A stretch of 64,000 nt of DNA from assembly GCA_051382295.1 (NCBI GenBank), contig JBBCAW010000022.1, positions 11,120-75,119 on the forward strand, read 5' to 3'. How positions within the stretch are numbered: the stretch's first letter is position 1; each line of letters starts with the position of its first letter. Under the pieces are notes generated by a model. It was not told where the DNA came from and did no database searches. It worked only from the letters and a program-made list of their open reading frames with translations. Positions 57,135 to 62,376 of this stretch are shown here, piece by piece. This DNA is from Bdellovibrionota bacterium FG-1. Its GTDB lineage: Bacteria; Bdellovibrionota; UBA1018. The position numbers and the translations under genes were made by a program.

Positions 57135-57429
57135 CGTGGGTGCGGGATCATGGAGCCTCAAAGTTGGAAAACGATATTCCTCAAACATCTGGTTCATTCG
57201 ATTCTGAAGTAAACCCAAATCGTATCTCATAGGGTCCAATCCCCTTTTCTTTACATTTCAAATTTAAAGTAATCTTCAAGCGGCAATATCTAAGCCACAG
57301 ACCAAGCACTTGAATTCACGACATAATCATGAACCAGCCTGTGCCTTTTGAAATGAATGAGGCCATTCACCCCAGCGGACGCTCAGTAACCCCTCAACTC
57401 ATCCACGAAATTTGACGATACATTTCCAT

Positions 57430-59088
57430 ATGGGCCACCTGATCGTCTTGATTGACGACTCCACAACCGCGACTAAACGTACCGCTTTGATGGTCCGAGG
57501 CATTTTAACCAATCAAGATATTCAGATTCAATCCTTCCAAGGGGTAGAAGAATTTCAGGCCTACTTTGAAAAAAATCCGATGCCCCCGTGGATCATCTTT
57601 ACTGATTACGTCATGCCTGGCCAAACCGGACTGGACCTGATCGACTGGCTCAAGCGACACCCCATTCTTCACTGGACCCCCGTGTGCATGATGACCGGTG
57701 AAATCGGTCCAGAAACGCGAGTCCAAGCCACCAAAGCTGGCGCTTGGGAATTTCTTGAAAAACCCATAGAACCGGAATCTCTCGAAAAAGTCTTTGCCAA
57801 ACGAAAAAATACCGAGATCGATTACGAAGAGTTAAAAAGCCTGGATCATGGTTTTTCAGAGGAAACCATGGATCTAGTGGGCAACCAGGATCAGCTCCTT
57901 TCGGACTTTGGGGAACCGAAGATACGCGAACTTTACCGGATTTTCCATACGATCAAGGGGACAGCCCGAAGTCTGCAACTCCCGGCGATCTCCAATCTCG
58001 CCCACGAGGCTGAATCCTTTTTGACCGCGGTCACCCATGGAAACATGTATAGTTTTCCCCAAACTCTTGAGATTCTTAAAAAAGTTCTCGGTTTTTTTGA
58101 AGACCAATGTGACTCCCTCAAATCCAACCGCCTCCTACTCAATGCCCCCAAAGAACTTTTGGATGAAATCCACCTCTTCAAGGCCAACGTAGCGGCAGGC
58201 TGGAAGATGGGGGGCGCTCCCGCAGGCTCCCCCGACACGACCTCACCCCAAAATAGCCCAGCTCAAACGGCTGCCAACCAAGGCGGGGTCGTTGGCCGGA
58301 CGGCCACGAGCGTCCGAATCAACAACGACCGTTTGGATATGTTGCAGGTTCGGCTCAAAAAGATTTTAGGAATCAAGTTCAGGTTGAGCCAATTTACGAA
58401 CCAACTTCAGCAAGAGTTTTTCGATGAGCCCTTCCCCAAAGAACTCCTTAAGATGGTGGGCGAACTCAATGACGAAGCCATGGCGATTTTTGAGTTTTTC
58501 ATTTCACTGCGGGTCATCCCCGCCACCCGCCTTAAAATATTTTGTGAACGCGTCCTCAATGAAGTAGTCGAACAGCTCGGCAAACCCGCAAAAATCGAGT
58601 TTACGATTGAACCAGGCGTCGAAGTGGATATGGCGGTGATCGAGTGCCTGGAAGGATCATTTGTGCACCTCATCCGTAATTCGATCGATCATGGCACCGA
58701 AGACATCGAGGCGCGCAGAAAAGCGGGTAAAAAAGAAGAAGCACTCCTCAAAATTGCAGTGACCCGCGATGGTACGGAAAAACTTTCCTGTATTCTCGTG
58801 GATGACGGCAAAGGAATTGACCGTAACGCCCTCAAAAATGCGGTTGCTAAAAAACAGCTTTTATCTCAGGACGCCCTCGACAAGCTCACCGATCAATCGA
58901 TCGACGAGCTGATTTTTATCGAAGGGCTTTCGACCCGCGCTGAAGTCACCGAAACTTCGGGAAGAGGCGTGGGAATGGACGCGGTCAAGAAACGGATCGA
59001 AGAAATGGGTGGATCGATTCAAGTCAAATCAACGCCTGGCAAAGGCGTCGGTTTTAAAATTTCACTACCGAGGATATTTAAATTATGA
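57430..59088 (+). CDS. CheA-like kinase: REC-Hpt-dimerisation-HATPase, no CheW (P5) domain
   Basis: Receiver (TDYVMPG), FHTIKG, HLIRNSIDHG, DDGKG, SGRGVGMD; ends at KISLPRIFKL. Confidence 0.88.
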   Translation: MGHLIVLIDDSTTATKRTALMVRGILTNQDIQIQSFQGVEEFQAYFEKNPMPPWIIFTDYVMPGQTGLDLIDWLKRHPILHWTPVCMMTGEIGPETRVQATKAGAWEFLEKPIEPESLEKVFAKRKNTEIDYEELKSLDHGFSEETMDLVGNQDQLLSDFGEPKIRELYRIFHTIKGTARSLQLPAISNLAHEAESFLTAVTHGNMYSFPQTLEILKKVLGFFEDQCDSLKSNRLLLNAPKELLDEIHLFKANVAAGWKMGGAPAGSPDTTSPQNSPAQTAANQGGVVGRTATSVRINNDRLDMLQVRLKKILGIKFRLSQFTNQLQQEFFDEPFPKELLKMVGELNDEAMAIFEFFISLRVIPATRLKIFCERVLNEVVEQLGKPAKIEFTIEPGVEVDMAVIECLEGSFVHLIRNSIDHGTEDIEARRKAGKKEEALLKIAVTRDGTEKLSCILVDDGKGIDRNALKNAVAKKQLLSQDALDKLTDQSIDELIFIEGLSTRAEVTETSGRGVGMDAVKKRIEEMGGSIQVKSTPGKGVGFKISLPRIFKL

Positions 59089-59495
59089 AAACGAACGTAT
59101 TGATTGTCGACGATTCGGCCAGTATCAGAGAGATTATCAAACACTACCTTCAAGAAATCCCCAACTTGAACTTCATGATGGCAGGCGATGGTCTGGAAGC
59201 TGAGAAAATCCTTCAGGAATCGCTCCTGGTCGAAAACCTCGTCGATATTATGTTTCTGGACTGGATGATGCCCAATCAAACGGGATTCGATCTGTTGCGC
59301 CGAATGCGCGAAACCGAAGGGTTTGCTCATCGCCCCAAAGTGATCATGCTCACGGCGGAAACCTATCCAGCTCAAATCGAAGCCTGCATTAAATTTAAGG
59401 TGAGCGCGTACGTGACCAAACCCTTTACCCAGGATGATCTGATTCAGGCTTTCCACAAAGCGATCGGAGATCGGAGCGAACATGACGCAGCTTGA
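59085..59495 (+). CDS. CheY-like single-domain response regulator
   Basis: VLIVDDS, LDWMMP, MLTAE, KPFT. Confidence 0.9.
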   Translation: MKTNVLIVDDSASIREIIKHYLQEIPNLNFMMAGDGLEAEKILQESLLVENLVDIMFLDWMMPNQTGFDLLRRMRETEGFAHRPKVIMLTAETYPAQIEACIKFKVSAYVTKPFTQDDLIQAFHKAIGDRSEHDAA

Positions 59496-60342
59496 ATTTC
59501 ACCCTCAGACCGACTATTTGATTGTGACGATCCGCGGGCCCGCGCTTGAACCTCCGCGTCCATCCCTTGCCGACCAGATTGGTGAAAAGCTCACCAACAT
59601 GGCCAAGAAGTTCGTGATCTTTCAATGCGCGGAATGCAATGACATCGGCCCCGCTTTTATGCGCGAATTAGCCATGACCTATAAGCTCCTGGCCTCCATT
59701 AATGGAAAAATGGTTTTAGTCGCACCGAATAAAAAAATTCAAGAAGCGATTAAAAAACAAGCCCTCGACCGCTTGTTGGTCGCCAAACTCAGCTTGCGCG
59801 GCGCACTGGTTGAATTCGGGCTCGTGAAGGAAAAAGATTTTGACGTCAATTTTATCAATCCCTTTCTTGCGGCCACGCAACGCGTGCTTAAGGTTCAGTG
59901 TTTTCTGGACTCCAAGCCAGCCAAACCCTATCTCAAGAAGCCCACGGATCCGATGTTGATCGGAGATCTAAGCGGGATTATCGGGATCACGTCCGAGGCC
60001 TTTTCCGGCACTTTGGCGATCAGTTTTAAAGAAGAAATCTTTTGCAAGATCGCCTCGAGCATTCTAGGCACCCCGTACCCGAATATTATTCCGGAAATTG
60101 TCGATCTTGCCGGCGAGCTTTCAAACATGATTCTTGGACAGGCCAAAATCGAACTCAATACTCTTGGCTACCAAATTCAGCAGGCGCTGCCTTCTTGCGT
60201 TTGGGGAAAAGACCACCAGATCAAAACCTTTGGTGGAGGCGCGTGTATTGTGTTGCCACTGGTGACAGCAATGGGAGAAATCCATGTCGAAGTGAGCACG
60301 AATCAGACATTGCTGAAATCGATACCCCCTAAAGCTGCGTAA
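59482..60342 (+). CDS. cheX: STAS-like plus CheX phosphatase fusion
   Basis: FINPFL, DLSGIIG, GELSNMILG; N-terminal STAS-like region. Confidence 0.85.
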   Translation: MTQLEFHPQTDYLIVTIRGPALEPPRPSLADQIGEKLTNMAKKFVIFQCAECNDIGPAFMRELAMTYKLLASINGKMVLVAPNKKIQEAIKKQALDRLLVAKLSLRGALVEFGLVKEKDFDVNFINPFLAATQRVLKVQCFLDSKPAKPYLKKPTDPMLIGDLSGIIGITSEAFSGTLAISFKEEIFCKIASSILGTPYPNIIPEIVDLAGELSNMILGQAKIELNTLGYQIQQALPSCVWGKDHQIKTFGGGACIVLPLVTAMGEIHVEVSTNQTLLKSIPPKAA

Positions 60343-60344
60343 AA

Positions 60345-60906
60345 AAGATTTCTTGTTTTTGGGCCTTTCGAACGGATGTATGATAGGCCGGCAAAATAAA
60401 CCCCAGCAGGGTGTCCTCGAGGATTTCGAAATAGCGAGCTACGGTGACGCTATCCACTCCGATCTCTCGGGCGACTCTTCAAATGTAGATGCCAGAACGG
60501 CCTCGGGCAAGCTCCCCCATTGGAGAACTTAATCGAGGTTAAACTGGTCTCCCAGCTCCGTGCTGGTGAAGGGATAAAGATTGTACACCCACGCACGCCC
60601 CGCGAGAAGGTTGGCCCCTTCTTGCTTGAGTTTACGGCTACTGGAGCCGGTGAGAATGAACTGCCTTTTGGTTTTTTGAATTTGGGAATGCACAACATCC
60701 AAAAGCCGTGGAAATTTTTGAACCTCATCGACCACAACGCGCTTCTTTTGATTTTCTGGAGTCGGGATAAAGGCTTCGAATCGAGTGGGATCGAGCAGCA
60801 GTTGATCCATGAACTAAAGGTCCAGAAGGGTGGTTTTGCCTGAACCGCGTGGCCCAAATATAAAAAAATTGTTAGTTTTAGATAACTTACATGACCTCTG
60901 AATCAT
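60345..60906 (-). pseudogene. Decayed AAA_14/DUF4143 ATPase
   Basis: MIQRS...FGPRGSGKTT then stop; VVDEVQK, LTGSSSRKL, LLAGRA, WGSLP; then frame change to REIGVDSVTVARYFEILEDTLLG; internal deletions, no C-terminus. Confidence 0.8.
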
Positions 60907-61009: not shown

Positions 61010-61027
61010 AACACCGACGTCGGTGCT
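61010..61027. repeat. Dispersed palindrome, copy 5
   Basis: AACACCGACGTCGGTGCT plus the tail shared with copy 2. Confidence 0.88.
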
Positions 61028-61088
61028 CATTCTTTATAGCCAGTGGAATTTACTGCGATTGGGTGCCTATTTTTCAGTTCTACCAACG

Positions 61089-61104
61089 TGGCACTGATGT
61101 TGCT
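61089..61104 (+). promoter_or_regulatory. Sigma-54 promoter in array unit 1 (also 61538-61553 and 61987-62002)
   Basis: TGGCAC-TGATG-TTGC, exact TGGCAC-N5-TTGC consensus in all three units. Confidence 0.75.
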
Positions 61105-61175
61105 TTATTGCTGCCAGCCAAATCGGGCAGCGTAGATGGAATTACCTCCTTTTCTCAAGAAAGGAGGTAACCCCG

Positions 61176-61325
61176 ATGAAGAATAAAAAAAAGGCTCCAA
61201 AGGCCAGACATTATTCTTTTCGTCGATGGCTCAAAAAACTTAAAAAAAACTGGTCCAAAAAATATCTATTCCAGTTTTTGTGGTTTTTAGCCAAGTTGGT
61301 TCTGTTCTATCTCGATCATCAGTGA
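61176..61325 (+). CDS. 49-aa cationic/hydrophobic peptide 1 (type I toxin-like)
   Basis: AAGGAGGT RBS; MKNKKKAPKARHYSFRRWLKKLKKNWSKKYLFQFLWFLAKLVLFYLDHQ. Confidence 0.8.
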   Translation: MKNKKKAPKARHYSFRRWLKKLKKNWSKKYLFQFLWFLAKLVLFYLDHQ

Positions 61326-61624
61326 GGAGGCCCGGGGGTACAGCTCAACCCGGAGCTCCCATGGAAGGGAGCTGCCCGATTTGGTTTTATCAGTTGGGGC
61401 TCCGAACGATCTTGCGATTGGCAAGCCCTTCCTCATTGAGTCCGAACATCAGACACTCTGATTGAAATCTAAACTCACGCTCGATTCGAAGATGCCAAAA
61501 ATGCTGGAAAACAGCCTATTTTTCAGTTCTACCAACGTGGCACTGATGTTGCTTTATTGCTGCCAGCCAAATCGGGCAGCGTAGATGGAATTACCTCCTT
61601 TTCGCAAGAAAGGAGGTAACCCCG

Positions 61625-61774
61625 ATGAAGAATAAGAAAAAGGCCGTCAAGGTCTACTATTGTTCCTATCGGTTTTGGCTCAAAAAACTTGAAAAAAACT
61701 GGACCCAAAAAAATGTAATCCAGTTTTTGTGGTTTTTGGCCAAGTTGGCTCTGTTCTATCTCGATCATCAGTGA
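61625..61774 (+). CDS. 49-aa cationic/hydrophobic peptide 2
   Basis: Same RBS; MKNKKKAVKVYYCSYRFWLKKLEKNWTQKNVIQFLWFLAKLALFYLDHQ. Confidence 0.8.
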   Translation: MKNKKKAVKVYYCSYRFWLKKLEKNWTQKNVIQFLWFLAKLALFYLDHQ

Positions 61775-62073
61775 GGAGGCCCGGGGGTACAGCTCAACCC
61801 GGAGCTCCTATGGAAGGGAGCTGCCCGATTTGGTTTTATCAGTTGGGGCTCCGAACGATCTTGCGATCGCGAAACCCTTCCTCATTGAGTCCGAAGTTCA
61901 GACACTCTGAATGAAACCTAAGCCCACGCTCGATTCGAAGGTGCAAAAACTGCAGGAAAACAGCCTGTTTTTTGGCTCTACCAACGTGGCACTGATGTTG
62001 CGTTAATGCCGCCTGCCAAATCGGGCAGCGTAGATGGAATTACCTCCTTTTCGTAAGAAAGGAGGTAACCCCG

Positions 62074-62223
62074 ATGAAGAATAAGAAAACGGCTCAGAAG
62101 GCCAATTATTATTCCTTTCGGTTTTGGCTCAAAAAACTTAAGAAAAACTGGACCCAAAAAAATATGTTCCAGTTTTTTTGGTTTTTAGCCAAGTTGGTTC
62201 TGTTCTATCTCGATCATCAGTGA
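62074..62223 (+). CDS. 49-aa cationic/hydrophobic peptide 3
   Basis: Same RBS; MKNKKTAQKANYYSFRFWLKKLKKNWTQKNMFQFFWFLAKLVLFYLDHQ. Confidence 0.8.
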   Translation: MKNKKTAQKANYYSFRFWLKKLKKNWTQKNMFQFFWFLAKLVLFYLDHQ

Positions 62224-62376
62224 GGAGGCCCGGGGGTACAGCTCAACCCGGAGCTCCCATGGAGGGGAGCTGTCCGATTTGGTTTTAACGAATGCTTACG
62301 CGGCATGCAACACCGATCATTCTCTAGATCTGGCGCCACATGCCGCGCAATCAGGGCAAGAGTTAGGACGAGGACG

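Follow-up and report, generated by a model that had tools for sequence, protein, structure and literature searches.

Three similar units lie in tandem in the window, by which we mean the whole 64,000-nt stretch of DNA from Bdellovibrionota bacterium FG-1 that was analyzed, and the question they raise is what kind of gene is repeated here and what its short product would do. The earlier note described three units with an exact 449-bp period, each carrying a TGGCAC-N5-TTGC site and a 49-codon ORF, and suggested either a new type I toxin-antitoxin (TA) family or a battery of lytic peptides. The array is as described, with 90-91% identity between copies and the TGGCAC-N5-TTGC sites at 61089, 61538 and 61987, i.e., 87 nt upstream of each ATG. 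TRF gives a copy count of 2.7 because the third unit lacks the spacer. What that description missed was the wider dispersed family to which the array belongs and a predicted antisense promoter within the ORF. The features of the array are as follows.

61065..61513 (+): repeat unit 1, 449 bp
61514..61962 (+): repeat unit 2, 449 bp
61963..62287 (+): repeat unit 3, the whole gene without the spacer
61089-61103, 61538-61552, 61987-62001 (+): sigma-54-type -24/-12 sites
~61115 (+): predicted sense start, unit 1
61118-61131, 61567-61580, 62016-62029 (+): closing stem, 5' arm
61138-61173, 61587-61622, 62036-62071 (both strands fold, antisense better): Shine-Dalgarno (SD) hairpin
61176..61325 (+): peptide ORF 1, 49 aa
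61625..61774 (+): peptide ORF 2, 49 aa
62074..62223 (+): peptide ORF 3, 49 aa
61217..61243 (-): predicted sigma-28 (FliA) promoter in ORF 1, with -35 at 61236-61243 and -10 at 61217-61224
61666..61692 (-): predicted sigma-28 promoter in ORF 2
62115..62141 (-): predicted sigma-28 promoter in ORF 3
61130..61209 (-): predicted antisense RNA 1, start ~61209, 3' end uncertain, ~80 nt if ending after the hairpin
~61658 and ~62107 (-): predicted starts of antisense RNAs 2 and 3, 3' ends uncertain
61336-61344, 61785-61793, 62234-62242 (+): conserved 3' UTR loop GGGTACAGC, also in a flagellin leader
61371-61384, 61820-61833, 62269-62282 (+): closing stem, 3' arm

The antisense start positions use an offset taken from mapped FliA promoters. 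The spacers (61395-61513 and 61844-61962) have no homologue elsewhere in the genome, and each has at its end a hairpin between A and T runs, which could terminate transcription arriving from either direction. Directly upstream of the array is an AAA_14-type ATPase gene (60350-60900, minus strand), which is broken and has in-frame stops. A perfect 14-bp palindrome at 61012-61025, with 13 exact copies in the genome, sits inside a dispersed intergenic repeat, and the cluster further upstream (57412-60342) contains a Receiver-Hpt-HATPase kinase, a response regulator and a STAS-CheX fusion.

The array is a small part of a larger family. An iterated profile search found 27 matches on 16 contigs of the same genome, 25 intact and two broken, some of them in clusters of three; the window holds three of the 25 intact copies, and one further truncated copy lies beyond the profile matches. 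Outside this genome, carriers make up 9 of 40 near genomes and 24 of 126 genomes of the class, every one in the same order. We infer this order to be UBA1018, as one carrier, FG-2, is placed in the family, order and class UBA1018 (PMC13200544). A search of 1.84 billion proteins gave 58 representatives; relatives that were looked up are unnamed or “hypothetical”, and their named records are mostly Bdellovibrionota MAGs, with one titled Lysobacteraceae and one Deltaproteobacteria. Weak matches of a sequence-only RNA model in other classes led to a shorter branch with peptides of 32-43 aa, which is found in 28 of 400 genomes of the phylum and in 29 of the 44 genomes of one genus whose neighboring proteins are labelled Bdellovibrio. 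The peptide profiles of the long and short branches align (probability 91%, E 1e-6; 62% and E 7e-5 with smaller sets), and the two branches have their nucleotide anatomy in common. Copy number per carrier is patchy, from 1 to 27, with both tandem and dispersed copies, and the family occurs in many independent assemblies, including single-contig genomes. Most counts below refer to 60 units, three of 63 (L024, L032, L076) having been dropped for mis-assigned ends, and to 24 short-branch loci, six of 30 being unparsed; all are counts among kin, so their independence is overstated. L146 is a decayed family copy. The weak RNA-model match L149 was rejected as a member, and so was the Bd0931-0933 locus of B. 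bacteriovorus, in which Bd0932 is a long gene.

The family also appears to be new, as the earlier note had supposed. Neither the peptide nor the RNA gave a credible match in Pfam, NCBIfam, PHROGs, PDB sequences, Foldseek or Rfam; Pfam gave no credible one even at E <= 1, the ESM Atlas none at 0.9, and Rfam nothing at gathering score on the array, flagellin leaders and short-branch loci except a tRNA. No members were found in viral contigs, phages or plasmids, and exact look-up of ten short-branch peptides gave no match in the collection. None of the eight attack-phase sRNAs in supplement 1 of the B. bacteriovorus study resembles a family member by eye (PMC3627812). A literature search, with subscription papers outside its reach, found no prior description.

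Is the ORF a gene? The family has a pN/pS of 0.58 over 1770 pairs and a dN/dS of 0.60 in 67 close pairs, the alternative frames carry stops in 60/60 and 57/60 units, and the second codon position is the least variable. Judged by sequence comparison, the ORF is a real coding sequence, in line with the earlier reading, and a dN/dS of 0.6 indicates only moderate constraint. Since the units had been found by their peptide, profiles made from the UTRs only were also searched, and their 41 and 29 matches (2 and 2 of them away from known ORFs) included no intact unit without an ORF.

The peptides are 33-53 aa long with a net charge of +5 to +14, a basic N-terminus and a C-terminal hydrophobic segment, and AlphaFold predicts a single helix over residues 9-48 (pLDDT 74). 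The hydrophobic tail that had been noted in the array is a trait of the family more than of the window: the maximum 19-residue hydropathy on the Kyte-Doolittle scale reaches at least 1.6 in 52 of 60 peptides (median 1.96; short-branch minimum 1.84), but the three window peptides are among the least hydrophobic, at 0.91-1.18. A small protein with a transmembrane-like segment is one of the marks of type I TA systems, and the family has it, with the window copies below 1.6. However, described type I toxins have polar C-termini (PMC2887945), while the family peptides carry their charge at the N-terminus. No leader peptide is evident in the family alignments, and no leader ORF was seen either.

The sense strand begins with a putative sigma-54 promoter. 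A GG-N10-GC motif within two mismatches of the sigma-54 consensus lies 80-100 nt 5' of the ATG in 26 of the 27 copies in this genome (0.004 expected), which supports the sigma-54 control proposed earlier, and GG-N10-GC is kept in 20 of 24 short-branch loci. The genome encodes rpoN and about 25 enhancer-binding ATPases; a shared upstream activator site at the family promoters is not evident. In the short-branch sites (L145-L179) the -12 region is rich in A (AAATGCA), which hints that the RpoN consensus may differ in Bdellovibrio. Outside the family, the genome also has many perfect sigma-54 sites ahead of genes that begin like signal peptides.

The predicted mRNA is about 275 nt, and its 5' end pairs with its 3' end in a closing stem of 13-16 bp. 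In the window, the predicted transcripts have fold z-scores of -6.2 to -7.1, with none of 200 shuffles equally stable. Inverted ends of this length in many dispersed copies could also indicate a miniature transposable element (MITE) or an assembly artefact. However, two-sided changes occur in 10 of 13 pairs of the closing stem, and on the sense strand G.U outnumbers A.C by 45 to 3 (18 of 20 sources in favor, two ties); the ends thus form a stem of the plus-strand RNA and are not transposon ends. Between subfamilies the ends covary, with G.U tolerated on just one of the strands, and a constant distance separates the repeat from the promoter outside it. The three tandem copies show patterned differences of 9%, and the family recurs across the independent assemblies mentioned above. 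A MITE or artefact is therefore largely refuted and scarcely credible.

Within this folded mRNA the ribosome site, AAGGAGGT in each window unit, sits in the SD hairpin. The cost of opening it has a median of 19.0 kcal/mol over 60 units, compared with 9.7 kcal/mol for 150 of 504 control genes, which upholds the earlier claim of a sequestered site. The cost does not ease on removal of the 3' arm (19.7), of all sequence downstream of the stop codon (19.1) or of the first 20 nt (19.3), so that in an equilibrium model 3' trimming or loss of the 5' arm has no effect as an activating step; only the nascent transcript is easier to open (12.7 kcal/mol). The match between the SD and the 16S tail extends over 16 nt in 18 of 60 units and over 11 nt in the window copies, whereas it is 10 nt or less in all 2750 genes compared, and the hybrid energies are -24.6 and -9.4 kcal/mol, respectively. 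A CsrA-like ANGGA word lies 5' of the hairpin in 58/60 units. As modelled, the family thus shows the structured mRNA, sequestered SD and 5'-3' pairing that count among the criteria for type I TA systems.

The long 16S match is also an argument for a reading in which the functional products are the RNAs, with the peptide secondary, either with the FliA-driven antisense RNA acting in trans as an anti-Shine-Dalgarno sRNA or with the sense RNA trapping 30S subunits. Among the three window copies the UTRs are better conserved than the ORF, and copies without the hydrophobic half persist, both as such a reading would have it. On the other hand, the reading frame is kept with the pN/pS and codon-position pattern given above, the hydrophobic segment is present in 52/60 peptides, no intact unit lacks the ORF, and an over-long SD has been reported for the type I toxin yonT (PMC5848175). 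We regard RNA as the main product as improbable.

The second promoter lies on the opposite strand. Read in this direction, the most conserved bases of the ORF form TT(A/C/T)AG-N15-(C/A)CGA, which matches the FliA consensus mapped in B. bacteriovorus as TTAAG-N16-CCGATA, where TTCAG, TTTAG and TTAAT variants and 15-nt gaps are also among the mapped promoters (PMC3627812). In its loose form the motif is found in 52 of 60 ORFs, with 0.009 expected per ORF. Of 34 flagellin genes in six carrier genomes, 23 have this motif upstream, with a gap of 15 nt in 16 cases and of 16 nt in seven; genome-wide, the strict motif is only slightly enriched upstream of genes (41.9 vs. 30.6 per Mb). A sigma-70 promoter was also considered for the antisense strand and rejected, with two sites against 2.4 expected and a -35 not kept across copies.

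Codon usage over the motif separates the promoter from the protein. The anchor Arg is CGG or CGT in 49/49 cases, while AGR serves 67 of 150 other Arg residues; the wobble base ahead of it is T in 48/49 vs. 41/150 elsewhere; and Leu over the motif is CTN in 48/48, with TTR used for 109 of 346 other Leu. In a folding test, replacing Arg by AGR gave an mRNA as stable or better in 35 of 58 cases and Leu by TTR in 26 of 54, yet neither codon ever occurs. For the wobble T, a synonymous alternative was as stable in only 11 of 57; mRNA structure may therefore explain this base, and the promoter bases also pair in mRNA stems. In the short branch the motif is kept in 23 of 24 loci despite different residues over the boxes, often with GCCGATAA, and the wobble T in 21/23 vs. 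6/51 (L171 was dropped, and two of the 23 loci are mis-anchored in the wobble-T and hairpin analyses). Codon choice appears to follow the promoter motif and not the protein. The KKLK/WLKKLKK motif, which the earlier note took as antimicrobial-like composition, is then the -35 box of the predicted antisense promoter; in the Bdellovibrio branch the DNA motif stays while the residues encoded over it differ. The most conserved residues of the peptide are explained by the same putative promoter.

An antitoxin gene, which the earlier note could not locate from the sequence, is thereby predicted: a sigma-28 promoter inside the ORF that would produce an antisense RNA of 80-95 nt covering the ribosome site. 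The strand preference of the hairpins is mostly consistent with this. In the SD hairpin, A.C outnumbers G.U on the sense strand by 89 to 15, i.e., G.U falls on the antisense strand, whereas four other stems are sense-biased and controls are close to 1:1 (79 vs. 96 in control genes, 41 vs. 42 in shuffles). Most of the bias comes from the FG-1 genome (60 vs. 2; 29 vs. 13 elsewhere), and by source, with L096 additionally dropped, nine are in favor, eight tie and three are against. In the short branch the SD hairpin favors the sense strand (17 vs. 5), and there is a second hairpin with a U run after it, which begins at the -12 box of the sigma-54 site, ahead of where the sense transcript is predicted to start. 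This second hairpin is antisense-biased (A.C 11 vs. G.U 2) and with its U run is a predicted terminator for an antisense RNA of about 90 nt. The U run after the SD hairpin is weak in the window copies.

Codons 4-12, where the 5' part of the antisense RNA would lie, are the fastest-diverging stretch between the tandem copies, with a per-site difference of 0.31 compared with 0.02-0.04 in the UTRs and last 17 codons. This is as expected if each toxin/antisense pair stays specific; relaxed loops would look alike. In several copies elsewhere the hydrophobic half is gone but both promoters, and in many cases the 3' end, remain. Disarmed toxins would look like this, although hairpin slippage or assembly could do the same. 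Truncated copies were rejected as integration sites, as no integrase was seen and most are internal deletions. L080, L082, L083, L019:1686-1862 and G000:C96 are truncated or internally deleted right after the antisense -35 box, and are possible orphan antitoxins.

Both predicted promoters point to the flagellar cascade. The genome encodes FliA, FlgM and CsrA, and a perfect sigma-54 site precedes a basal-body operon ending in fliA, whose genes were read by eye from translations and Pfam positions. The order of RpoN followed by FliA in the flagellar cascade has been reviewed (PMC3930126), and FliA, which marks the attack phase in B. bacteriovorus, has 92 of the 140 attack-phase promoters of that species under its control (PMC3627812). 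A further connection is the 3' UTR loop GG(T/C)ACAGC, which with its variants occurs in 60 of 63 units and is absent from the short branch. The loop GGTACAGC is common to the family 3' UTR and a flagellin leader, where it forms part of a covarying hairpin ahead of one flagellin paralogue in five of six genomes (5/34 genes). This leader hairpin has no Rfam match and is a candidate new cis-regulatory RNA motif; a preQ1-like identity of the 3' loop was not supported. The leader hairpin with loop GGTACAGCA is found at L053:1921-2087 (-), L117, L123, L118 and L110, and a second copy of it lies 3' of the gene in the FG-1 genome.

These flagellar ties count for the main rival, in which the same two-promoter switch makes a non-toxic membrane regulator, e.g., of the flagellar motor, an export gate or a protease, timed by the flagellar cycle. 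Both promoters belong to the flagellar cascade (PMC3930126), the flagellin-leader loop and the ANGGA word next to an encoded CsrA would suit such a role, and Arg and Leu positions are conserved across the family peptides. However, these most conserved residues are explained by the promoter, the family was not found in 102 of 126 class genomes or in 15 of 44 Bdellovibrio-genus genomes, and 25 copies, a tight RNA lock and truncated copies better fit a selfish or toxic module. We consider a regulator doubtful.

A toxin is also what the layout resembles. The AapA/IsoA systems of H. pylori are multi-copy, with an mRNA of about 250 nt closed from 5' to 3' and an IsoA1 promoter inside the ORF (PMC5416894, PMC8594479). 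The family likewise has several chromosomal copies, a 5'-3' closed mRNA for a short peptide and, in its predicted layout, an antisense promoter inside the ORF with an RNA over the 5' region and the ORF start. Differences are that the IsoA1 promoter is of the TATAAT type, while the family has predicted sigma-54 sense and sigma-28 antisense promoters; that AapA1 is unlocked by 3' processing, as described in these sources, while the ribosome site of the family stays shut in silico; and that there is no profile match between the families. Homology to AapA/IsoA, Hok, Ldr/Fst, Ibs, TisB or other named families was not found in Pfam, NCBIfam, PHROGs, PDB or Rfam. Hok/Sok, Ldr/Rdl and Ibs/Sib share with the family an antisense RNA within the mRNA span and tandem copies in one intergenic region (PMC8594479, PMC2887945), but as these sources describe them, the antisense lies 5' of the ORF in Hok and Ldr and spans it in Ibs, and the family is without a leader ORF. 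The yonT/SR6 locus of B. subtilis has a similarly over-long SD (11 bp; 11 in the window, up to 16 in relatives) but is a convergent 3' overlap in a Gram-positive prophage (PMC5848175). Control by an alternative sigma factor, sigma-B, is known from type I TAs of Clostridioides difficile, where both genes have sigma-A and sigma-B promoters, whereas in the family two sigma factors of a cascade are predicted on opposite strands (PMC5961336). FliA-driven small RNAs also exist in the lineage, as the attack-phase sRNAs of B. bacteriovorus show (PMC3627812). Of the earlier proposal of a new type I TA family, the newness and the type I-like build are supported; activation by 3' trimming was not found in silico.

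The other earlier proposal, a set of antimicrobial or lytic peptides that would be exported to kill prey or to exit from it, fares worse. The net charge of +5 to +14 and one long predicted helix would suit it, and the hosts are predicted or known predators (PMC13200544). However, the neighbors are varied housekeeping genes, some copies adjoining HipA, PIN or nucleotidyltransferase (type II TA) genes, and no shared transporter, protease or immunity gene was found among the 54 of 90 neighboring ORFs that were scanned at 17 loci of the FG-1 genome. The missing leader peptide, the KKLK motif as a -35 box, and cis-antisense with SD locking, which point to self-toxicity, argue against it as well, and we hold a lytic battery to be very improbable.

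Collectively, what sequence comparison establishes is a family, a coding signal, a 5'-3' stem on the sense strand, two promoter motifs in fixed places and antisense-biased hairpins. Each unit is probably a type I TA-like module of AapA/IsoA layout, with a toxin mRNA and an antisense RNA predicted to come from sigma-54 and sigma-28 (FliA) promoters, respectively. In this module, the mRNA of about 275 nt would be made from the sigma-54 promoter and fold shut after synthesis, so that translation would be brief or trigger-dependent, helped by an SD that pairs with as many as 16 nt of the 16S tail. The peptide of 33-53 aa would enter the inner membrane of the cell that makes it, keeping the basic N-terminus on the inner side, and would depolarise this cell or slow it down. 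In flagellated, swimming cells, where FliA is active, the antisense RNA of 80-95 nt would silence the mRNA by pairing across the ribosome site and the first codons; with FliA silent and sigma-54 firing, the peptide would be made. Fast divergence of the first codons would keep each tandem toxin/antisense pair specific. As FliA drives attack-phase promoters (PMC3627812), silencing of the peptide by the antisense RNA would last while the cells swim and then end. If the antitoxin depends on sigma-28, cells that do not swim would lack protection, an odd arrangement for a lethal toxin and a point against the toxin reading.

More tentatively, the module could be a toxin switch gated by the life cycle, in which FliA writes the antitoxin and sigma-54 the toxin on opposite strands of the same 300 bp. 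The peptide would then be released on leaving or failing the swimming programme and serve as a checkpoint in development, be it arrest, dormancy or shutdown of the motor on entering prey, with the flagellin-leader loop as a site for a flagellar RNA regulator. The peptide motif R-x4-KLK would be a promoter in disguise. If the toxin-antitoxin reading is true, no earlier type I TA-like family of Bdellovibrionota is among the results of the literature search and this one would be the first, with an unusual wiring in which two alternative sigma factors of one ordered cascade drive toxin and antitoxin. The short branch belongs to the genus Bdellovibrio, some members of which are in culture and open to genetics, and the module would allow a connection from the attack/growth switch to a membrane effector to be tested (PMC3627812).
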